Both the position numbers and the translations under genes were made by a program. The notes under the pieces are model-generated. The model did not search any database, was not told the origin of the DNA, and saw only the letters and a list, made by a program, of their open reading frames with translations. From Lysobacter sp. CFH 32150 (GTDB lineage Bacteria; Pseudomonadota; Gammaproteobacteria; Xanthomonadales; Xanthomonadaceae), in assembly GCF_022758295.1 (NCBI RefSeq), contig NZ_JALDWJ010000007.1, positions 148,940 through 212,939 of the forward strand: a DNA stretch of 64,000 nucleotides, in the 5' to 3' direction. Shown here one piece after another: positions 1-42,459 of this stretch. How positions within the stretch are numbered: the stretch's first letter is position 1; every line of letters begins with the position of its first letter.

Positions 1-1729
1 GCACGATCGGTGACAACACGCCGACGTGGCGCGGGGTGCGGATCACGTGCACGCCTTCCGATTCGCCGAAGCGGCTGTCGGCATCGGCGAACACGAACAT
101 CTCGCCGCCGCGCGCGCGCACTTCCTGGATGTTGGACTTGACCTTCTCCAGCAGGCTGTCGTTCGGCGCGATCACCACCACCGGCATCGCGCTGTCGACG
201 AGCGCCAACGGTCCGTGCTTGAGTTCGCCGGCCGGATAGGCCTCGGCATGGATGTACGAAATTTCCTTCAGCTTCAACGCGCCCTCAAGCGCGATCGGAT
301 AGTGCATGCCGCGGCCGAGGAACAGCGCGTGCTGCTTCGGCGCGAAGCGGTCCGACCAGACGATGATCTGCGGCTCCAGGTTCAGCGCGTGCTGCACACT
401 GCCCGGCAGCTGGCGCAGCGCGTCGAGATAGCCGGTTTCCTGTTCCGCCGAGAGCAGCCCACGCAGTTTCGCGAGCGTGCCGGTGAGCACGAACAGCGCG
501 ACCAGCTGCGTGGTGAAGGCCTTGGTCGAAGCCACGCCGATCTCGGCACCGGCACGGGTGTAGTACACCAGCTTGCTCGCGCGCGGAATCGCGCTTTCCG
601 GCACGTTGCAGATCGACAGCGTCTTGTCGTGGCCGAGCGACTTGGCGTACTTGAGCGCTTCCATCGTGTCGAGGGTTTCGCCCGATTGCGAGATGGTCAC
701 GATCAGCTGCTTCGGGTTGGCGACGACCTTGCGATAGCGGTATTCGCTGGCGACTTCGACCGAACACGGCACGCCGGCGATCGCTTCGATCCAGTAACGC
801 GCGGTCAGGCCGGCGTAGTAACTGGTGCCACAGGCGAGGATCTGCACGGCTTCGACGTCGCGCAACACCGTCGCGGCGTCGCGACCGAACAGTTCCGGCG
901 TGAAGCCGTTGTTGTCGATCACCGCCTCGATGGTGTCGGCGACGGCGCGCGGCTGTTCGTGGATCTCCTTCTGCATGAAATGGCGATACGGGCCGAGCTC
1001 CAGCGAGGCCAGCGACACGTCGGAGACATGCACCTCGCGCTGCACCTCGTTGTCGGCGGCGTCGAACACGCGCACCGCCGTACGGGTGAGCTCGGCGGTG
1101 TCGCCCTCTTCGAGGAAGATCACCCGGCGCGTGGACGACACGATCGCGGAGACGTCGGAAGCGATGAAGTTCTCGCCTTCGCCGAGGCCGACCAGGAGCG
1201 GACAGCCCACGCGCGCGGCGACCATGCGCTCGGGATCGCGTTTGTCGATGACGGCGATGGCGTAAGCGCCGTCGAGTTCGCGCACGGCCTTCTGCAATGC
1301 CACGAGCAGATCATCGCCCTGCGTGCGGTAGTAATGGATCAGGTGCGCGATGACTTCGGTGTCGGTCTGCGACTCGAATTCGTAACCGAGCGCGCGCAGG
1401 CGTTCGCGCTGCTCCTCGTGGTTCTCGATGATGCCGTTGTGGACCAGTGCGAGCTCGCCGTGGCTGATGTGCGGGTGCGCATTGCCTTCGGTGACGCCGC
1501 CGTGCGTCGCCCACCGGGTGTGGCCGATGCCGAGCGTGGCGGTGAAATGCTCGGCCAGCGCCGCGGCTTCCATTTCAGCGACGCGACCAGTGCGACGCAC
1601 GCGACGCACTCCGCCATCGACGACCGCGATGCCGGCCGAATCGTAGCCGCGGTATTCCAATCGCTTCAGTCCTTCGATCAGGACCGGGACCACATCGCGA
1701 TTCGCGATCGCGCCAACGATGCCGCACAT
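1..1729 (-). CDS. glmS: Glutamine--fructose-6-phosphate aminotransferase GlmS. The C-terminus is truncated by the window edge. The N-terminus reads [13 protein letters not shown]... from the reverse complement, with the start codon at about 1727-1729.
   Basis: Reverse-complement translation gives the class-II glutaminase N-terminus (MCGIVG) and two SIS domains. It runs off the window, so it is absent from the ORF track. The plus-strand ORF 26..1762 is its antisense shadow. Confidence 0.9.
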
Positions 1730-3417: not shown

Positions 3418-3502
3418 CTCGTCATTCCTGCGAAAGCAGGAATCCAACGACTTTGTCTCTACACGATAAGGCACTGGATCCCTGCTTTCGCAGGGATGAC
3501 GA
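3418..3502. repeat. Pair of inverted 28-bp hairpin repeats (ctcgtcattcctgcgaaagcaggaatcc / ggatccctgctttcgcagggatgacgag) flanking a 29-bp spacer, inside the operon.
   Basis: Each unit is itself a stem-loop and the two units are inverted relative to each other. This is REP/BIME-like and lies in the 130 bp gap between the small ORF and the ATPase. Confidence 0.6.
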
Positions 3503-3539
3503 GCAAAACAAAACCACATCCCATCCAAGGATCAAAGCC

Positions 3540-4271
3540 ATGCTGGACATGCAAGCCGTCTCCAAGGTCTATCGCACCGAACTCGTCGAAACCCACGCGC
3601 TGCGCTCGCTCGACCTGCATGTGCGTGAGGGCGAATTCGTCGCCGTCACCGGTCCGTCCGGCTCCGGCAAGACCACCTTCCTCAACATCGCCGGCCTGCT
3701 CGAAGACTTCACCGGCGGCACTTACAAACTCGATGGCGAGGACGTTCGCGGCATGTCCGACGATGCCCGCAGCAAGCTGCGCAATCGCAAGATCGGTTTC
3801 ATCTTCCAGAGCTTCAACCTGATCCCCGACCTCAACCTGTTCGACAACGTCGACGTGCCGCTGCGCTACCGCGGCATGACCGCTGCCGACCGCAAGCAAC
3901 GCATCGAGCAAGCGCTGGCGCAGGTGGGCCTGGGTTCGCGCATGAAGCACTACCCGACGGAACTCTCCGGCGGACAGCAGCAACGCGCCGCGATTGCGCG
4001 TGCACTCGCCGGCAGTCCGCGCCTGCTGCTCGCCGACGAACCCACCGGCAACCTCGATTCGCAGATGGCACGTGGCGTGCTGGAACTGCTCGAGGAGATC
4101 AACGCCAAGGGCACCACCATCGTGATGGTCACCCACGACCAGGAACTGGCCGCACGCGCACAACGCAACGTGCACATCGTCGACGGCATGGCTACCGATC
4201 TCTCGGTCGAACCGAGCCTGATCCGCGCGCGTGACCTCGCTGCGGCCGAATCCAACGCATCGATCGCGTAG
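3540..4271 (+). CDS. ABC transporter ATP-binding protein (MacB/LolD-type ATPase).
   Basis: Walker A GPSGSGKT, signature LSGGQQQRAAIARAL, and Walker B LLLADEPTGNLD. The start was moved from 3453 to the ATG at 3540, which has an AAGGA RBS. The upstream part of the ORF is encoded by the hairpin repeat. Confidence 0.9.
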   Translation: MLDMQAVSKVYRTELVETHALRSLDLHVREGEFVAVTGPSGSGKTTFLNIAGLLEDFTGGTYKLDGEDVRGMSDDARSKLRNRKIGFIFQSFNLIPDLNLFDNVDVPLRYRGMTAADRKQRIEQALAQVGLGSRMKHYPTELSGGQQQRAAIARALAGSPRLLLADEPTGNLDSQMARGVLELLEEINAKGTTIVMVTHDQELAARAQRNVHIVDGMATDLSVEPSLIRARDLAAAESNASIA

Positions 4272-4336
4272 GGCGGGTCTTGACCCGCCTTCCTGCAAAT
4301 CGATGAATCAAAAAAGCGGCGGGTCAAGACCCGCCC
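4271..4336. repeat. REP family A pair, GGGCGGGTCTTGACCCGCC and GGCGGGTCAAGACCCGCCC in inverted orientation.
   Basis: Palindromic units read directly. The same unit recurs at 17222-17323. The ATPase TAG stop abuts the first unit. Confidence 0.7.
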
Positions 4337-4349
4337 TACGGAGACCAGG

Positions 4350-6931: not shown

Positions 6932-8287
6932 ATGCCGACGATCCTGGTCATTGATGACAACCCCGCGGTTGCGACCGCACTGGAAACCCTGTTCTCGTTG
7001 CAGGCATTGACCACGCTGGCGGCATCGACGCCGCAGCGTGGGCTGGCCCTGCTCGAACGCGAACAGGTCGATCTCGTCGTGCAGGACATGAACTTCCAGG
7101 CCGACACCACGTCGGGCGAGGAAGGCGTGGCGCTGTTCGGCGAGATCCGCGCGCGCTTTCCGGACCTGCCCGTCGTACTGCTGACTGCATGGACGCACCT
7201 GGAAAGCGCGGTCGACCTGGTCAAGGCCGGCGCCGCCGATTACCTCGCCAAACCGTGGGACGACCGCAAGCTGCTGGCGACGGTCAACAACCTGCTGGAA
7301 CTGTCGGAGACGCGGCGCGAACTCGCACAGGTGCGCGCAGGCGAGCGCCGACGCCGCGACGAGCTCGCACGCGACTTCGACCTGCGCGGCTACGTGTTTG
7401 CCGACGCCGCGAGCGAACGCGTGCTGTCGCTGGCGTGCCGGGTCGCGCGCTCGGAACTGCCGGTGCTGATCACCGGCCCGAACGGCGCGGGCAAGGAGAA
7501 GATCGCCGAGATCGTGCACGCCAATTCGACGGTCAAGGATGGCCCGTTCGTCGCGCTCAACTGCGGTGCACTGCCGGGGGAGTTGATCGAGGCCGAGTTG
7601 TTCGGCAGCGAGGCCGGCGCGTACACGGGCGCCCAGCGCGCGCGCGAAGGCAAGTTCGAAGCGGCCGATGGCGGCACCCTGTTCCTCGACGAGATCGGCA
7701 CGTTGCCGCTGGCCGGACAGGTCAAGCTGCTGCGCGTGCTCGAAACCGGCCGCTTCCAGCGTCTTGGCAGCAACAAGGAACGCCAGGTCAGCGTGCGTGT
7801 GCTCAGCGCCACCAATGCCGACCTGCCCGCGCTGATCCGTGCAGGACACTTCCGCGAAGACCTGTTCTATCGCCTCAATGCGATCGAACTGCAGTTGCCG
7901 CCGCTCGCCGAACGCCGCGACGACATCCTGCCGCTGGCACGGCATTTCCTGCCCACGGGCAAACGCCTGACGGAAGATGCCGAGCGTGCGCTGCTGGCAC
8001 ATCGCTGGTCCGGCAACGTGCGTGAGTTGCGCAACGTGGTGCAGCGCGCTGCACTGCTTGCACGCGATGCGACGATCACCGCCGAAGCGCTCGGTTTGCC
8101 GACATCGACGCCGACCAATGGAAACCACGTCGTGTTCGACGAACCGGACCGCGTTGCGATCGAGGCTGCATTGCAACGTAATGGTGGCGTACTGGCACAA
8201 GCCGCGAGCGACCTCGGCCTGTCGCGGCAAGCGCTATACCGCCGATTGGAGCGCCTGGGCATCAAGCGCGACGAAGGCCGGGACTAG
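6932..8287 (+). CDS. Sigma-54-dependent response regulator, with REC, AAA+ enhancer-binding and Fis-type HTH domains (NtrC family).
   Basis: REC aspartate context (DLVVQDMNF), Walker A GPNGAGKE, a GAYTGA variant of GAFTGA, and a C-terminal HTH ([15 protein letters not shown]). Confidence 0.9.
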
Positions 8288-8551
8288 GGCCTGTTAACAC
8301 TTATGGAGCATGCCGCGTTGTTTCCCAACGGTCGTCAGGTGGTGTTGCACCGCGCAGCGCCTTGCCGCCTGCAAGGTCAAGCGGTGCGGCGCCGCATGGC
8401 GGCCGTTGGGAAACAACCCAAAGGGCCGGGCCTGAAGCCGCGCGGTGCCGCGTCATCGCTCGGTTGCGTATCGACATACGCGCCCTCACTCTTCCTTGCC
8501 CCGCGCGGCTTCAGGCCCGGCGCGGCATGCTCCATAAGTGTTAACAGGCCC
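8288..8551. mobile_element. MITE-like element copy 1, 264 bp, with 31-bp perfect terminal inverted repeats GGGCCTGTTAACACTTATGGAGCATGCCGCG and flanked by TAG on both sides.
   Basis: The TIRs and a nested internal long hairpin were read directly. It is homologous to the elements at 40390-40655 and 41011-41136, in inverted orientation. Confidence 0.6.
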
Positions 8552-8556
8552 TAGCA

Positions 8557-9872
8557 TGCGCTGGCGTCAACGGCTGCCGTTAAGCCTGCAATTCAGCGCG
8601 GTCGCGCTGGGTTACATGGTGCTGGCCGCGGTCTTGACCCTGTTGCTCTCGCAATGGCTCGCCAACCGCTGGCTCGCCGCGGCCATCGCCGTGGTGGTCT
8701 TGCTGCCGTTGCTCGTCTATCACGTCAGCCGCGCTTTCGCGCCGATGCATTCGCTGTTCCGCGCGCTCACAGGCACGGTCAGCAGTTATCGCGACGGCGA
8801 CTACAGCTTCGGCCTGTCCTGGGACGGCGGCGGTGAACTTGGTGCACTCGTTGCCAGTCACAACGCCCTCGGCGATGCACTGCGCGACCAGCGCCTGGCA
8901 CTGGTGCAACGCGAACTGCTGCTCGACACCATGGTGCAGAACACGCCGGTGGCGATGCTGCTGGTGGATCCGGGACGCCACATCGTCCATGCCAACATCG
9001 CCGCACGCAAATTGCTGGGCGAGGGCCACAAGCTCGAGGGACACGCCTTCGACGCGCTGCTGCAAGCCGCACCTGCTGCCATGCAGCAAGCGTTCGCCAA
9101 TGGTGGCGACGGCATGTTCAGCGTCGGCGATGAAGACGACGAGGACATCTACCATCTCTCGCGCCGGCAATTCCGCCTCAACGGACGCCGCCACGAACTG
9201 ATCCTGCTGCGCCAGCTCACCGCCGAGCTGCGCCGACAGGAAGTGCATACCTGGAAGAAAGTGATCCGGGTGATCAGCCACGAACTCAACAATTCGCTCG
9301 CGCCGATCGCCTCACTGGCGCATTCCGGCGCCGAATTGTTGCGTCGTGGCCAGCTCGAGCGCTTGCCGGTCGCGTTGTCCACGATCGAGGAACGCGCGCG
9401 CCACCTCGAAGGCTTCATCCGCGGTTATGCCCGTTTCGCCAAGCTGCCGGCACCTCGCTATGAACCCGTCGCGTGGCCGCGCTTCATCGAGCAGTTGCGC
9501 GGACAAGTCGCGTTCGCGTTCGATGGCCCGGTTCCAGAAGGCAACATCCGCGTCGATGCCGCGCAGTTGGAGCAGGCGTTGCTGAACCTGCTCAAGAACG
9601 CCCACGAGTCCGGCTCCGGACCGGAGCACGTGCAACTCGCGTTGCGGCGCCTGCCCGATGCCTGGCGGATCGATGTACTCGATCGGGGCCAGGGCATGAA
9701 CGCCGCGGTGCTCGCCAATGCACTGCTGCCCTTCTATTCGACCAAGCGCAACGGCACCGGCCTGGGGCTGGCGCTGGCACGCGAGATCGCCGAAGCACAC
9801 GGCGGCCGCATCGCCCTGCTCAACCGCGAGGGTGGCGGATTGTGCGTGAGCCTGACGCTGCCTACGGCTTAG
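8557..9872 (+). CDS. Sensor histidine kinase with two N-terminal TMs, a PAS-like domain, HisKA and HATPase_c; partner of the sigma-54 regulator.
   Basis: H-box VISHELNNSLAPI, N and G boxes (LLNLLKNAHES, GTGLGLALAREIAEAHGG). The start is taken at the first ATG (8557) after the MITE. The track ORF starts at a GTG (8538) that lies inside the MITE. Confidence 0.8.
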
Positions 9873-14845: not shown

Positions 14846-16335
<1,490 letters not shown>

Positions 16336-21593: not shown

Positions 21594-21914
21594 GCGCGTG
21601 ATCCGGGGGAGTGGCAGGGGCTGCGGGCAGGCTTTGCAATCAAAACCTCCCCGCGGAGCCGCAAAAGTATAGCAGTCGGCCATTTTCAGCGGCAACCGCC
21701 GAAAGGCGTGAATTTCCATACGGGGTGCACCTGTAGGCGTATGCGCGCCGGCGCTGCACGCATTCGTGCACGGAACCTTTGCTCGCCCTCCGGGTCAGTC
21801 CTGCGGAGGCCTGCTTCTACTTCCTCGTCGGTCCTCGTGGCAGGTCTTCGGAAGCCCCGGCGTTCGCGTCGGGGCTTCGCTTTTTGCAGGAGCTGTGTGG
21901 GGGGCTATGGCATT

Positions 21915-21983
21915 TGTGGGAGCGACGCAAGTCGCGATGGGGGAGCTCAACGACCACTTGATCGCTACTTACGTCGCTCCCAC
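21915..21983. repeat. REP family B pair (gtgggagcgacgcaagtcgcga ... tcgctacttacgtcgctcccac) in the atpI-lpd intergenic region.
   Basis: Inverted 22-bp units read directly. Confidence 0.7.
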
Positions 21984-22013
21984 AAACCCCACAAAACAGG
22001 AAGAGGTGCAGCC

Positions 22014-31204: not shown

Positions 31205-31400
31205 GGCGTCAGGGGCGTTTCCACCTTTTTCTTCTCCTCCCTTTCGCCAAAGGCGAAGGGGAGGGTTGGTGAGGGTGCTTTTGATCTTGCTTATGCAACC
31301 GCAAAGTCAAAAGCACCCCCTCCCAACCTCCCCCTGCGCTTCGCGCAAGGGGAGGAGCAAAAGCAACGCGCGACAACCGATCCATCGCGCAATCAATTCA
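31205..31400 (+). promoter_or_regulatory. Three consecutive strong GC hairpins in the 5' leader of the SPFH gene, each carrying CCUCC and GGAGG.
   Basis: The hairpins are cctccctttcgcc-aaa-ggcgaaggggagg; ggttggtgagggtgcttttgat...gtcaaaagcaccccctcccaacc; and ctccccctgcgc-ttcg-gcgcaaggggag. Confidence 0.4.
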
Positions 31401-36452: not shown

Positions 36453-37001
36453 ATGTTCATGAATGAGGCTCACGAAGACGCCATCGGCGCGACCCGGCAC
36501 TGGCTCGAACGCGCGGTGATCGGGCTGAACTTGTGCCCGTTCGCGAAGGCGGTGTACGCCAAGCAGCAGGTGCGCTTCGTGCTCAGCATGGCGACGACTC
36601 CGGAAGCATTGCTGGAGGAGCTCGGCAACGAACTCGTGCTGTTGCGCGACACGCCTGCGGAGGAAATCGACACGACCTTGCTGATTCACCCGCAAGTGTT
36701 GGGCGAGTTCCTCGACTACAACGATTTCCTCGACGATGCCGATGCGCTGATCGAGGCGCTGGAACTAGACGGTGAGATCCAGGTCGCCAGCTTCCACCCG
36801 CAGTATCAGTTTGCCGGCACCGACCCCGACGATATCGAGAACTGCAGCAATCGTTCGCCATATCCGATGCTGCACCTGCTACGCGAGGACAGCGTGGCGC
36901 GTGCGGTGGAGGCATTTCCTGACCCGGATGCGATCGTGGAGCGCAATCTCGAGACGTTGCGCCGGCTCGGCCGCGACGGCTGGGAAAAACTGCTCCTGTA
37001 G
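36453..37001 (+). CDS. DUF1415-family protein.
   Basis: N-terminal VIGLNLCPFAKAVY and overall similarity to DUF1415. Start at MFMNEAHED. Confidence 0.6.
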   Translation: MFMNEAHEDAIGATRHWLERAVIGLNLCPFAKAVYAKQQVRFVLSMATTPEALLEELGNELVLLRDTPAEEIDTTLLIHPQVLGEFLDYNDFLDDADALIEALELDGEIQVASFHPQYQFAGTDPDDIENCSNRSPYPMLHLLREDSVARAVEAFPDPDAIVERNLETLRRLGRDGWEKLLL

Positions 37002-37120
37002 GAGCGACGTAAGTCGCGAGCTTTCGGTCGCTGAAGCAATCGCGACTTACGTCGCTCCCACAAGGGGCGAGCTTTTCGGTGGTCGAAGCAGTCGCGACTT
37101 ACGTCGCTCCCACAGGGGTG
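36994..37120. repeat. Two REP family B copies (gtaggagcgacgtaagtcgcga...tcgcgacttacgtcgctcccaca, twice).
   Basis: Read directly. The second copy overlaps the 3' end of rsuA. Confidence 0.7.
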
Positions 37121-40374: not shown

Positions 40375-40669
40375 CGCAACGCCGCACCAGGGCCTGTTAA
40401 CGCTATCCGAGCAGGTCGCGCCGGGCCTGACGGCGTGCGAGGCAAGGAAGAGCGAGGGCGCGTATGTCGATACGCAACCGAGTGATGACGCGGCATCGCG
40501 CGTCCTCAGGCCCGGCCCTCCGGGTTGCTCCTCAGTGGCCGCCAGCCGGCGCCGCGCGCCTTGTCCTTGCAGCAAGCAAGGCGCTGCGGCACGCAACACC
40601 ACCTGGCAGCCACTGAGGAGCAACGCGACCTGCTCGGATAGCGTTAACAGGCCCTGGTGCGGCGTTGCG
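40375..40669. mobile_element. MITE-like element copy 2. The core (40390-40655) is bounded by GGGCCTGTTAACGCTATCCGAGCAGGTCGCG TIRs, extended to 46-bp inverted repeats.
   Basis: TIRs read directly. The internal region is about 80% identical to copy 1 (inverted) and includes a long hairpin with compensatory changes. Confidence 0.6.
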
Positions 40670-40744
40670 TCGCTAACACCGGCTTTATGAAATCGCAACA
40701 TCGTTGGCGTCACCATGCTCGCGAACCCACCCTGGAGCAAAGCG

Positions 40745-41011
40745 ATGCGAGCACTCTTCGTCGGCGGCATGGTGGACAACAGCGAACTGGATCTCGACGC
40801 AGCCCAGCCGCCTGCGCATTACCCCGAAAACACTGGCGCCGGCCGGCCGCGCTACCGGCTGCACCACATCGGTGAACACAATAGCGATGGCGAGATCGCC
40901 TACGTGGTCTATGCCGCACCGGAGCTGGCCGATTACGAGGTCGAGCGCATTGCCAGCGAGCGCGGCTATCCGCGCCGTTTTGACGCCACCCCCGCGCTCG
41001 TGACCAGCTAG
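40745..41011 (+). CDS. Hypothetical protein (about 88 aa) lying between two MITE copies. Its TAG stop is the first three bases of MITE copy 3.
   Basis: ORF with GC3 bias; MRALFVGGMVDNSELDL.... No homologue recognised. Confidence 0.35.
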   Translation: MRALFVGGMVDNSELDLDAAQPPAHYPENTGAGRPRYRLHHIGEHNSDGEIAYVVYAAPELADYEVERIASERGYPRRFDATPALVTS

Positions 41012-41136
41012 GGCCTGTTCACGCTATCCGAGCAGGTCGCGCCGGGCCTGAGGCCGTGCGAGGCAAGGAAGAGCGAGGGCGCGTATGCCGATACGCAACC
41101 GAGCGATGACGCGGCATCACGCGGCATCAGGCCCTA
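41011..41136. mobile_element. MITE-like element copy 3 (truncated). It has the left TIR GGGCCTGTTCACGCTATCCGAGCAGGTCGCG, about 90 bp of internal core, and a short right end caggcccTA.
   Basis: It aligns to copy 2 with an internal deletion between caggccc microhomologies. Its right-end TA(G) is the stop codon of the minus-strand PQQ dehydrogenase gene. Confidence 0.5.
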
Positions 41137-42459
41137 CTTCGGCGCAATGCGCCAGATGACGTCGCCGACATCGTCGGCGACCAGCAGCGCGCCATCCTTG
41201 CCGACCGCAACACCGACCGGGCGCCCGCGTGCGTTGCCGGACGTGTCGAGAAAATCGGTCAGCACGTCTTCGATGTCGCCGGCCGGACGGCCATCCGCGA
41301 ACGGCACGAACACTACCTTGTAGCCAGCCGGCGGATCGCGATTCCACGAACCATGCAAGCCAACCAAGGCGCCATTCGCATAACGCGAGGGCAACAGCTT
41401 GCCGGTGTAGAACGTCAGGCCCAGCGGCGCGACATGCGAGCCCAGCGCGTAGTCGGGCGGGATCGCTTTCGCCACCAGATCGGGCCGCGGTGGCTGCACG
41501 CGGCTATCCACATGTTGGCCGTAATAGCTGTAAGGCCAACCATAGAACGCGCCTTCGCGTACTGAAGTCAGGTAATCGGGCACCAGGTCGCTGCCGAGTT
41601 CGTCGCGCTCGTTGACCACCGCCCACAACACCCCGCTCTGCGGTTGCCAGGCGATGCCGACCGGATTACGCAAACCGGAGGCGAACAAACGCCGGCTGCC
41701 GGTCGCCGCATCGATTTCGAGGATCGCAGCGCGATCGGTTTCGATCTCCATGCCGTGTTCGGCGACGTTGCTGTTGGAGCCGACACCGACGTACAACTTC
41801 GAGCCGTCCTTGCTCGCGACCAGGCTTTTAGTCCAGTGATGGTTGCGCGGTAGACCCGGCAGATCGGTGACCTTGGTCGGCGCAGCGGTGATCTGCTTGT
41901 CGCCGCTGCGGTACGGAAAGCGCACCACTGCATCGGCATTGGCGACATAGAACGTCTCGCCGACCAGTGCCATGCCGAACGGCGACATCAGGTTCTGCAG
42001 GAACACGCTGCGGGTCTCGGCGACGCCATCGCCATCGGTATCGCGCAGCAGCGTGATGCGATTGGGGCTGGACATGGAGGCGCCGGCCTTCGCGAAGGCC
42101 CTGTTCACGAACCACCTGCGCAACACGCCCAGTGGCGGATCTTCGGTGGGCGGCCGATTGGTTTCCGCCACCAGCACGTCGCCGTTGGGTAGCACGTACA
42201 CCCAACGCGGATGCACGAGGTCGCGTGCATAGGCGTTGACCGCAAGCCCTGCAGCCGGTGTCGGCATTGCGCCGGCAGGCCAACCGACCGCTGTAGCGAT
42301 CTTGACCGTGGGGATCAGTGTCTTGGTCGGCGCTGGCAGCATCGGATGCGGTCCGGTGCCGGCCTTCGTCGACAAGCGCGCGGTCTCGCCGCAACCGACT
42401 ATGCCGATCAGCAATAACGCGAAGGTGTGACGCGCATGGGGATGGACGATGCTGTTCAT
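41134..42459 (-). CDS. PQQ-dependent soluble sugar (aldose) dehydrogenase, YliI/Asd beta-propeller family, lipoprotein-type signal.
   Basis: 441 aa with an N-terminal [10 protein letters not shown] lipobox and a beta-propeller repeat pattern. Confidence 0.75.

Follow-up and report, generated by a model that had tools for sequence, protein, structure and literature searches.

What lies between the two genes of a two-component pair in Lysobacter sp. CFH 32150, and does it alter how they are expressed together? The window, by which we mean the whole 64,000-nucleotide stretch of DNA that was analysed, carries the two genes on the same strand:

6932 to 8287, plus strand: NtrC-type response regulator gene, from the ORF list and Pfam; stop TAG at 8285-8287
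8556 to 9872, plus strand: sensor histidine kinase gene, 438 aa from the ATG at 8556

The regulator contains Response_reg, Sigma54_activat and HTH_8 domains (Pfam E-values 1e-64, 1e-20 and 1e-10) and ends, in agreement with the first-pass annotation of this DNA, at the TAG of the ORF 6932-8287; the kinase contains HATPase_c, PAS_8 and HisKA (Pfam). In the close relative L001 the regulator C-terminus is identical, the protein end being unaltered by the insertion described below, and the kinase N-terminus, MRWRQRLPLSLQ, is the same as in P0001/L001. The dN/dS values against L001 (0.10 for the regulator, 0.05 for the kinase) span the entire divergence from that relative, and not just the time since insertion; judging from the sequence, both genes are intact and constrained overall. 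The kinase ATG had been placed at 8557 and in fact occupies 8556-8558, 5 nt after ...GGCCC and 2 nt after the 34-nt repeat described below. The GTG at 8538, in frame with the kinase, does sit inside the intervening element as had been stated, within the right arm of its repeat; this matters for annotation, as ORF callers start the kinase there and give it six extra repeat-encoded residues.

Very probably, 8286-8552 is a copy of a non-autonomous, TA-flanked foldback transposon (MITE), from a family spread through the Lysobacterales. Its parts and borders are:

8285 to 8286, no strand: left TA, the target dinucleotide; first two bases of the regulator stop
8286 to 8552, plus strand: MITE copy 1, 267 nt, A-GGGCCTG...CAGGCCC-T; missing from L001-L003
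8287 to 8317, plus strand: left terminal inverted repeat (TIR), 31 nt; its first G completes the regulator TAG
8317 to 8417, plus strand: internal hairpin I2, arms 8317-8353/8381-8417
8425 to 8521, plus strand: internal hairpin I3, arms 8425-8448/8498-8521; the base of its stem repeats the terminal GGGCCTG
8450 to 8501, plus strand: near-invariant core GCGTCATCGCTCGGTTGCGTATCGACATACGCGCCCTCACTCTTCCTTGCC in the I3 loop (alignments A1 and A3)
8521 to 8551, minus strand: right TIR, 31 nt; carries GTG 8538 and AGG 8546-8548
8552 to 8553, no strand: right TA, second copy of the target dinucleotide
8554 to 8555, no strand: GC without counterpart in the L001-L003 empty sites (TAGCATG here vs TAATG there)

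Copy 1 is ~68% G+C and the whole of it is a dyad made of two hairpin halves. Its ends belong to a perfect inverted repeat, 8284-8317 / 8521-8554, whose arms of 34 nt (including the CTAG) are 100% complementary and 203 nt apart; within it the TIR 31-mer GGGCCTGTTAACACTTATGGAGCATGCCGCG reads at 8287-8317 on the plus strand and at 8521-8551 on the minus strand, and a shuffle control gave matches in 0/100. The RNA fold of 8260-8600 reaches -239 kcal/mol (z = -16.9 vs shuffles), which, together with the perfect repeat, bears out the high stability that had been attributed to the 31-bp terminal stems and internal hairpin. The element had been taken to start at 8288; since the G that closes the TAG already belongs to the repeat, as its first G, the start is at 8287, or at 8286 counting the conserved A. 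The conservation of the core is partly ascertained, because 23 nt of it served as search bait. An Rfam 15 search of the element returned only chance-level miRNA and lncRNA matches, far under the gathering score.

That a mobile element inserted precisely between regulator and kinase, as claimed, is borne out by the nearest relatives, three contigs (L001-L003) with a 97%-identical kinase, which are without the element and read GGGACTAATGCGC. In these empty sites the regulator TAA overlaps the kinase ATG by one base (TAATG) and there is a single TA; the filled site has TA on each side. More distant relatives are also without the element and have gaps of 31 nt (L004) and 9 nt (the P0003 contig), so that relatives have overlapping or closely spaced genes, just as had been predicted. 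Loss in the relatives, rather than gain here, is ruled out by these three nearest and two more distant empty sites. The element entered the TA of a stop/start overlap, a TAATG-type junction, between the two genes; before insertion the site of copy 1 would have read ACTAGC, and the insertion adds 269 nt between the genes. At the right junction the kinase ATG is kept 3 nt beyond the second TA, and the extra GC at 8554-8555 may reflect either lineage divergence (92% nucleotide identity) or an imprecise junction. At the left junction, TA on both sides and an element starting with G yield TAG, so that the codon at which the regulator terminates is still the ancestral one. The stop codon was therefore not donated by the element, as the first-pass annotation had it, because the TAA of the relatives ends the regulator at the same codon; the T and A are the ancestral target dinucleotide, and the third base alone, the G, comes from the element.

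The window holds three copies of the family, the other two being:

40389 to 40655, minus strand: MITE copy 2, 267 nt, ~81% identical, of the other TIR subfamily
41011 to 41134, minus strand: MITE copy 3, a half element with one TIR plus hairpin I3

Copy 3 was rightly said to adjoin TAG stops on both sides: its flanking TA at 41009-41010 is part of the TAG of the ORF 40715-41011, and that at 41135-41136 belongs to the TAG with which the dehydrogenase gene (41134-42459) ends on the minus strand. The empty sites L032/L033 show the convergent pair overlapping at xTAG, with a single TA, a comparison which places the insertion of copy 3 in a TA common to two convergent stop codons. Since GTAG stands on one side of copy 3 and CTAG on the other, TA alone is common to its flanks, and a 4-bp CTAG or a 3-bp duplication is ruled out. 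Both TA-flanked filled sites show small junction indels against their nearest empty sites, +GC at copy 1 and -CGT at copy 3. Copy 2 is flanked by CA...TG, not by TA, and occupies the loop of an intergenic hairpin, for which the empty sites L032/L033 show GCAACGCCGC-loop-GCGGCGTTGC. GTAG-type REP palindromes are present in the same window.

Beyond the window, the family is found at 25 genome loci in at least seven genera, the hosts being Pseudoxanthomonas, Luteimonas, Lysobacter, Agrilutibacter, Rehaibacterium, Dyella and a Rhodanobacteraceae MAG; among the hits, Luteimonas salinilitoris C3-2-a3 and Pseudoxanthomonas sp. CCNWLY206-1 carry 4-5 copies. Several members occupy operon junctions that are conserved between species (L011/L021, L013/L027 and L020/L030/L048/L049). 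Full copies are mostly 264-268 nt, with longer variants of 291, 291 and 315 nt (+24, +24 and +48) and one of 292 nt (L023). Three helices show strong compensatory changes: 96.3% of alignment cells are paired, and double changes occur in 55/103 pairs, where shuffles give 27.6 and slid controls 10-15. The TIR ends are paired across 14 aligned copies, with double changes in 24 of the 31 pairs, and I2 has compensatory changes in 18 of its 35 pairs across the family, together with many G.T pairs on this strand only. Element ends read GGGCCTGTTAAC..., or TA-GGGCCTGYTARC in the TA-flanked form. TA is the flanking dinucleotide at ~27/43 ends and the base preceding it is C at most of them, such that the ends are mostly CTA-GGGCC, with GTAG at just a few. 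The base adjoining the element (A/T) is kept at 41/43 ends, the outer base being T at only 27/43. A literature search by sequence strings gave unrelated matches only.

Why should such a repeat be found so often at the ends of genes? Roughly one element in two touches a genuine stop codon, and at ~11-12 of 42 ends the element border falls on the stop of a long ORF with high GC3; with the empty sites of copy 3, this supports the view that insertions of this family repeatedly hit and re-create stop codons. TA occurs 850 times against 1986 expected (43%; genome 65% G+C), and CTAG 22 times (~10%) where base composition predicts about 208, a figure calculated from the G+C value. This shortage of TA, and still more of CTAG, would account for the accumulation of copies at stops and boundaries: harmless insertions in a 65% G+C genome would be those in stop codons and gene boundaries. 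The G-first end makes stop-codon hits silent for the upstream protein, and the family shows how a TA-seeking repeat persists in a G+C-rich, gene-dense genome.

Our best guess at what the element does to the pair is that it is a tolerated insertion, mildly polar or neutral, rather than an evolved regulator. In the transcript, the regulator stop (8284-8287) would be base-paired within the 34-bp stem to 8551-8554, immediately ahead of the kinase ATG. To finish the regulator, a ribosome would have to open the base of this stem, and would thereby free the kinase start region, including the element-supplied AGG at 8546-8548, 7 nt upstream of the ATG. The element is also traversed by an open frame:

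8303 to 8554, plus strand: open frame through the element, 83 codons, from ATG 8303 to TAG 8552-8554

It begins within the left repeat, at element position 17, with an ATG 15 nt past the regulator stop; its TAG combines the final T of the element with two flanking bases and leaves 1 nt before the kinase ATG. The suggested uncoupling of the kinase may occur, but the layout would equally let translational coupling persist, through either the terminal stem or the ORF.

One could take this further and suppose that the element is built for operon junctions, with ribosomes translating through the hairpin and handing over to the downstream gene. We consider this doubtful, for all that in co-oriented copies the frame closes at the junction or runs into the following ATG (TAG-1 nt-ATG in the window; TAATG in L013/L027 and L011; TGATG in L012; ATGA in L009 and L021). 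The L030/L048/L049 subfamily has this same frame open from a TTG, called as an 87-aa gene, and ending in TGATG; the length variants of 291, 291 and 315 nt differ by multiples of three; and between co-oriented genes, sense copies number 11 and antisense copies 4 (by eye). However, this orientation bias is not significant (one-sided binomial p ~0.06), L023, at 292 nt, breaks the rule of three and is frameshifted, the frame of L024 closes after only two codons, and the ATG is missing from the second TIR subfamily, that of copy 2 and L018. Open frames are moreover common in G+C-rich DNA, with several on both strands in most copies, and we estimate a chance of ~0.1 that ATG, stop-free repeat and junction frames would coincide. 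The ATG at 8303 has no good Shine-Dalgarno sequence and is buried in the 34-bp stem, zero Pfam families match, and just 3 database proteins do; the protein search with the 83-aa frame that returned these three led to two further copies of the L030-type junction. For annotation, the frame matters in that 'hypothetical proteins' of 83-87 aa are called inside copies (P0241-P0243). A minus-strand ORF behind an SD-like AAGGAAGAG was also tried as a gene and rejected: although open in most copies, it shares this with other frames, and there is no Pfam match.

The broader proposition, that the 267-nt repeat family is adapted to colonise operon junctions without breaking them, strikes us as equally hard to credit at present. 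On this proposition the first base would regenerate the upstream stop and the last bases would give an AGG ~7 nt before a start that used to overlap the target TA, whilst the terminal stem would join the old stop to the old start. The ATG in the repeat would open a frame across the entire element, closing on or next to the downstream ATG, with ribosomes traversing the loop or re-initiating across it. If true, structure and core would be kept by selection on the transcribed sense strand, beyond transposition alone.

Rather unlikely, too, is that the element acts as an RNA processing and stability module, in which RNase III would cut the terminal stem, the regulator and kinase messages would then be independent, and their ratio would change. 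The 34-bp perfect stem, the two further helices and a pairing conserved across the family all suit such a role, and Correia repeats are cut at their terminal repeats in Neisseria (PMC10969869, PMC2229807). The sense strand of I2 carries 68 G.T vs 8 A.C pairs, which points to a strand-specific single-stranded form, in contrast to the TIR (10/10) and I3 (3/6), where G.T and A.C are symmetric. Yet four ancestral columns account for most of this excess, and the sense strand was the one folded, which favours G.U pairs; ends that pair would be expected just as much if a transposase recognised both of them. This is, moreover, a lineage-specific insertion, missing at 97% kinase identity, and there is hence no sign of long-term retention at the site. 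The locus offers a natural experiment, with an overlapping pair in the relatives, a pair here held apart by an RNA fold that ranks among the most stable that could be inserted, and both genes intact; comparing the filled and empty states would show how far the stoichiometry of the pair depends on the overlap.

How the element moves is a related question. A Pfam search of its internal ORFs gave no match, and the 267 nt hold no transposase gene. Nor did a parent transposase element with matching ends turn up in the window or 49 loci, or on plasmids or viral contigs: neither TIR matches in the window and all loci nor a scan of the window for long inverted repeats spaced by up to 3.5 kb yielded a parent, a metagenome scan with the TIR gave 14 loci, every one a small element or a solo end, and scans of plasmids and of viral sequences gave no match. 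A DDE/TA-duplication mechanism rests on analogy for this reason, and by that analogy the mover is probably a DDE transposase of the IS630 or IS5/IS427 type, supplied in trans. IS5/IS427-group elements use the same TA/CTAG target as IS630, so the two are not separable. Likewise, a 2-bp TA duplication and a blunt A...T insertion between T|A would look identical, and a conserved inner A/T with a varying outer base is odd for pure target duplication.

A foldback repeat moved as single-stranded DNA by an HUH/tyrosine-type enzyme (REPIN/RAYT-like or IS200/IS605-like), and inserted at T|A without duplication, would accommodate that variable outer flank base and conserved inner A/T, as well as the missing parent IS, the dyad of two hairpin halves and the strand-asymmetric G.T pairs of I2; the REP palindromes in the window, being of the GTAG type, also mean that a RAYT-type system may exist in the genome. 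We nevertheless regard such an enzyme as decidedly improbable: long perfect TIRs flanked by TA at each end, against a single TA in the empty sites, make up the classic DDE/TA signature, no conserved GTAG marks the ends, where C precedes TA in most cases, 267 nt with 31-nt repeats is far above the size of a REP/REPIN unit, and neither a RAYT nor a TnpA gene was seen beside any copy.

There remains transcription, for which the first-pass annotation had suggested a terminator or promoter in the element. Consensus scans of 8100-8750 on both strands gave 0 intrinsic-terminator and 0 sigma-70 sites, and the sequence after the stem is CUAGCAUGCGC / CUAGCAUGCGCUGG / CTAGCATGCGCTGG, without a U run, which leaves the suggestion unsupported. 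The element may also be too tightly folded to give Rho a loading site. Because the terminator and promoter consensus is missing and the fold is too tight for Rho, regulator and kinase are most likely still co-transcribed. That the element instead supplies a terminator or an outward promoter, the kinase being transcribed apart from the regulator, is very improbable indeed, despite the very stable hairpin between the two genes and the promoters or terminator-like ends of some MITEs elsewhere (PMC10969869), given not just the empty scans and a stem followed by CUAGCAUGCGCUGG with no U tract, but also a best -10-like hexamer (CATAAG, 8533-8538) that lacks the final T and leaves a leader of only ~10 nt, and the family members in conserved operon junctions, which argue against strong termination.

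The element has several counterparts. The Correia repeats of Neisseria (CREE/NEMIS) are, like the present element, non-autonomous, with TA ends and many copies at gene boundaries, and their TIRs are ~26 nt vs 31 nt here. They are 100-157 bp, A+T-rich and found in Neisseria only, with an IHF site and known outward promoters, whereas the element described here is 267 bp and ~68% G+C, with two internal hairpins, an invariant core, a home in the Lysobacterales and no promoter consensus. We know of no sequence relation between the two. Correia repeats are co-transcribed with their neighbours, and their terminal stem is cut by RNase III (PMC2229807, PMC10969869). Chunjie of Geobacter uraniireducens is reported to have one copy inside an operon that stays an operon (PMC10969869 and PMC3184786, citing Chen et al. 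2008); it has a similar size (178-235 bp) and very stable predicted RNA folds, but an A+T-rich composition, 21-bp repeats and 9-bp direct repeats, as opposed to the 2-bp TA flanks and G+C-rich sequence seen here. The bcr1 repeats of the Bacillus cereus group are predicted to form, as RNA, a cruciform-like fold with two independent stem-loops within paired ends (PMC3184786), a three-way layout like that of the present element, and differ in length (~155 bp), host (Firmicutes), sequence (unrelated) and target. Closer to home, the RAYT-associated REP/SMAG palindromes and REPINs are also G+C-rich palindromic repeats, located at gene ends in Xanthomonadales relatives, where they affect upstream message stability (PMC3184786); REPs are, however, 20-40 nt long with a conserved GTAG and neither TIRs nor TA flanks, and the element here has no conserved GTAG. 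RUP of Streptococcus pneumoniae, for which movement in trans by an IS630-family transposase is better supported than for any other bacterial MITE (PMC2229807), shares the TA target and terminal repeats; it is 107 bp with repeats that match a known IS, whereas no matching IS was found here in the sequences scanned. With bacterial TA-ended MITEs and RUP/IS630-Spn1 as precedents (PMC2229807), the element is an additional member of an already known type, the TA-flanked MITE, and a clean yet fairly ordinary example of repeats settling at gene boundaries.

Copy 1 is an insertion between the regulator and kinase genes. Three metagenome contigs encode P0001, the closest database relative of the kinase (97% identical), and on all three the two genes overlap by one base, the last A of the regulator's TAA being common to the kinase ATG (GGGACTAATGCGC). 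At exactly this overlap the window carries 269 additional bases (8287-8555), with the final regulator codons and first kinase codons identical in the filled and empty states, and the target dinucleotide TA on both sides of the element (8285-8286 and 8552-8553). More distant relatives have spacers of 31 nt and 9 nt without the element. The first-pass annotation had placed a MITE precisely at this boundary and expected overlapping or closely spaced genes in relatives lacking it, as is indeed found. Its proposal that the element donates the regulator's stop codon is overstated: the last codons match those at the empty sites, so the position of the stop is ancestral, and T and A belong to the target dinucleotide; the codon was rather re-created, with only its third base coming from the element. 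Overall, the observation is confirmed and its interpretation supported in part.

A GC at 8554-8555 follows the right-hand TA in the window and is absent from the empty sites, and the pre-insertion site inferred for the window lineage under every duplication model is GGGACTAGCATG, which contains CTAG, not GGGACTAATG. DNA identity between the two lineages is only 92%, so this extra GC may be ordinary divergence, or it may reflect imprecise insertion. Against L001, one of the nearest empty sites, dN/dS is 0.10 for the regulator and 0.05 for the kinase, indicating strong purifying selection; these values span the whole divergence, and therefore show only that neither gene decayed.

In the window, the junction reads GGC CGG GAC TAG/GGCCTGTTAACACTTATGGAGCATGCCGCG ... 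CGCGGCATGCTCCATAAGTGTTAACAGGCC/CTAGC ATG CGC, with the following features:

6932-8287, regulator open reading frame, TAG stop at 8285-8287
8284-8317 and 8521-8554, perfect inverted repeat of 34 nt
8556-8558, kinase ATG, one base earlier than the 8557 first annotated

By Pfam, the regulator comprises receiver, sigma-54 AAA+ and HTH_8 domains, and the kinase PAS/HisKA/HATPase_c. The 31-mer beginning GGGCC occurs at the two repeat sites only (0 matches in 100 shuffles). The very stable structure suspected between the genes is borne out by the perfect stem and two internal hairpins, I2 and I3: the RNA fold of 8260-8600 reaches -239 kcal/mol (z = -16.9), and the DNA fold of the element -125 kcal/mol (z = -16.2). 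The GTG at 8538 does lie within the element, in its right arm, and the ORF list uses it as the kinase start. This is an annotation artefact of the longest-ORF rule, adding six repeat-encoded residues (8538-8555), and the 52-87-aa hypothetical proteins that gene callers name inside element copies (P0241-P0243) are likewise artefacts of the repeat.

What might this mean for the gene pair? The suggestion of a terminator or promoter is not supported, as a consensus scan found no terminator or sigma-70 match in or beside copy 1 and the stem is not followed by a U tract; with the predicted fold so tight, Rho would also find no unstructured C-rich stretch, so that read-through transcription across copy 1 would be expected. 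In the empty-site relatives, regulator stop and kinase start overlap, with GAAGG 9 nt upstream of the latter; in the window the start is preceded by ...AACAGGCCCTAGC, with an AGG 7 nt upstream that is supplied by the element. The bases before the kinase start make up the 3' side of the 34-bp stem; its 5' side starts at the regulator stop codon, and a ribosome terminating at 8285-8287 would melt the stem base, leaving the kinase start exposed. Unmasking of a downstream start by a terminating ribosome is classical translational coupling, and we infer that the copy 1 stem may permit coupling of this type. By analogy with Correia repeats, where RNase III cutting of the stem has been shown (PMC10969869), RNase III could also cut the copy 1 stem. 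We consider it unlikely that frame 8303-8554 is translated across the element: it runs from a repeat ATG to 1 nt short of the kinase ATG. This geometry recurs among family copies, but this DNA is rich in open frames, and several copies depart from the bridging pattern.

Two further copies lie elsewhere in the window:

40389-40655, minus strand, copy 2, 81% identical, flanks CA...TG
41011-41134, copy 3, one repeat and hairpin I3 only

Both are absent from L032 and L033, loci whose dehydrogenase is 91% identical. Copy 3 had been described as abutting the TAG of an ORF and, on the opposite strand, that of the dehydrogenase, and both TAGs prove to be TA plus the element's G: at the empty site, the dehydrogenase and a convergent 88-91-aa ORF overlap at their stops (TTAG or CTAG) and have the TA in common, while at the filled site each gene has its own TA. 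One codon, CGT, is missing before copy 3 (41006-41010), which could be lineage divergence or imprecise insertion; at both TA-flanked copies (1 and 3), the junction itself shows a small indel relative to the nearest empty sites. The other end of copy 3 is GGGCCTG, which forms the I3 stem base, and the copy either stems from a short derivative that transposed or was left by a deletion between two direct GGGCCTG heptamers. Copy 2, with GGGCCTGTTAACGCTATCCGAGCAGGTCGCG on each arm, represents another repeat subfamily and sits in the loop of what is, in L032/L033, a 10-bp hairpin (GCAACGCCGC-loop-GCGGCGTTGC).

Using 23 nt of the I3 loop as bait (exact match, one genome per species), we found 25 loci in Pseudoxanthomonas, Luteimonas, Lysobacter, Agrilutibacter, Rehaibacterium, Dyella and a Rhodanobacteraceae MAG. 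Full copies mostly measure 264-268 nt; those that exceed this (291, 291, 315 and 292 nt) contain nested 24-nt hairpin inserts, either one or two. These inserts (AGAGCCTGCCCC...GGGG; in L011, L012, L021 and L023) occupy two positions, the I2 loop and the central linker, with both filled in L021, and begin AGAGCCTG, resembling the ends of the L010-type subfamily. The consensus fold of 14 full copies (alignment A3) is a three-way junction of terminal stem, I2 and I3, with 96.3% of cells paired and two-sided changes in 55 of 103 pairs, against 27.6 in shuffles and 10-15 with slid partners. Terminal repeats differ wholly among subfamilies (GGGCCTGTTAAC..., AGAGTCTGCTTTC..., AGAGCCTGACTAATG..., AGGGCGTGCTGGCC...), and about 50 nt of the I3 loop scarcely vary, a conservation that is partly ascertainment given that the bait lay there. 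G.T/A.C pairs number 10/10 in the terminal stem, 3/6 in I3 and 68/8 in I2 (window 8317-8417, A3 columns 33-133). This excess hints that the I2 helix may matter on just one of the strands, whether as RNA or as single-stranded DNA, although most of it comes from four ancestral columns and the fold was predicted on that same strand.

Scanning metagenomes with the repeat's first 21 nt gave 14 loci, only three of them of the window element's family. Four others match that family in their 21-24-nt terminal repeat (AGGGCCTGTTAACACTTATGG) but have unrelated interiors:

L034:1893-2160, 268 nt
L042:745-1011, 267 nt
L044:2759-3076, 318 nt
L047 ~496-728, minus strand, 233 nt

All four are dyads built from two hairpin halves, with loops of the pattern CAAGG...GAG...small hairpin...AAC, and the first two match the window family in size too. 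L042, far richer in A+T, probably comes from a different host. There are also 52-nt mini versions with little beyond the two terminal repeats (L037:681-733, L041:4821-4873) and solo ends; one solo 25-nt end (L024 ~1728-1754) adjoins a gene's stop. Judging from these sequences, the shared ends seem to define a wider superfamily of foldback elements.

Outside GGGCC on either strand, the dinucleotide is TA at ~27 ends, CA at 10, GA at 3, CG at 2 and AA at 1, usually preceded by C. That insertion repeatedly lands on or re-creates stop codons is upheld: the junction is TAG at 26 of 42 scanned ends, and ~11-12 of these close a long ORF with high third-position G+C, i.e. a real gene stop (including the window's three, L007, L009, L020, L022, L025, L029 and L030). 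Several right ends adjoin a start codon as TAATG (L013/L027) or TGATG (L012, L030, L048, L049), or lie a few bases before one (L009, L011, L021, L025). TA is scarce in the window (850 observed, 1986 expected), as is CTAG (22 against ~208, by arithmetic from 64.8% G+C), and 3 of the 22 CTAGs are element junctions. The simplest reading is that the target is TA, with CTAG preferred. Since the element starts with G, insertion into TAA or TAG leaves the upstream protein unchanged, and purifying selection would leave mainly insertions in stop codons and gene boundaries.

Some junctions are occupied across species or genera: L020/L030/L048/L049, where a large upstream ORF (882-952 codons in L020/L030) precedes a Mur-ligase-domain gene; L011/L021, upstream of a LysR-like gene; and L013/L027, upstream of a ribF-like gene (the latter two named by eye). 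They have the look of old insertions retained within or next to operons. At L019:4453-4716, the copy interrupts a small membrane-protein gene, presumably of GlsB/YeaQ/YmgE type, whose N-terminal part (MTLQSLLVVLLVGGIAGWLAG) enters the element and then stops, and an ORF beginning MKGRGFGILGNIVVG opens directly after it.

No transposase-bearing element with these ends was found in the window, the 49 loci, plasmids or viral contigs. TA flanks with CTAG preference suit IS630-family transposases and the IS427 group of IS5. RUP/IS630-Spn1 is a documented bacterial analogue (PMC2229807). The inner A/T is conserved at 41 of 43 ends, the outer base is more variable, and the CA...TG flanks of copy 2 are unlike a TA duplication; insertion may proceed either with a 2-bp duplication or by blunt entry of A...T between T and A, with a small chance of another enzyme class.

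The window also holds a second repeat family, unrelated to the MITE, and long imperfect palindromes:

16283-16334, 21908-21991, 36995-37116 and 4267-4340, short G+C-rich REP-type palindromes
3418-3503, long imperfect palindrome, 36-nt arms, 86%
31229-31362, long imperfect palindrome, 62-nt arms, 73%

Some of the REP-type palindromes are preceded by GTAG (TGTAGGAGCGACGTAAGTCGCGA, CGTAGGGCGGGTCTTGACCCGCC), and the unit also occurs inside the L026 and L029 loci.

Copy 1 has no Rfam match, and searching the literature by sequence turned up no account of this MITE family. The case is well documented and its anatomy testable, if unsurprising to a specialist in bacterial repeats. REP/SMAG identity was ruled out, as the element differs from those units in having no conserved GTAG. 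It shows the features that define a bacterial MITE, an identified parent IS being the one exception, and works like Correia, RUP and ERIC-type elements (PMC2229807, PMC3184786, PMC10969869); one copy of Chunjie likewise lies within an operon (PMC3184786, PMC10969869), and the two-stem-loop fold is like that of bcr1 (PMC3184786).
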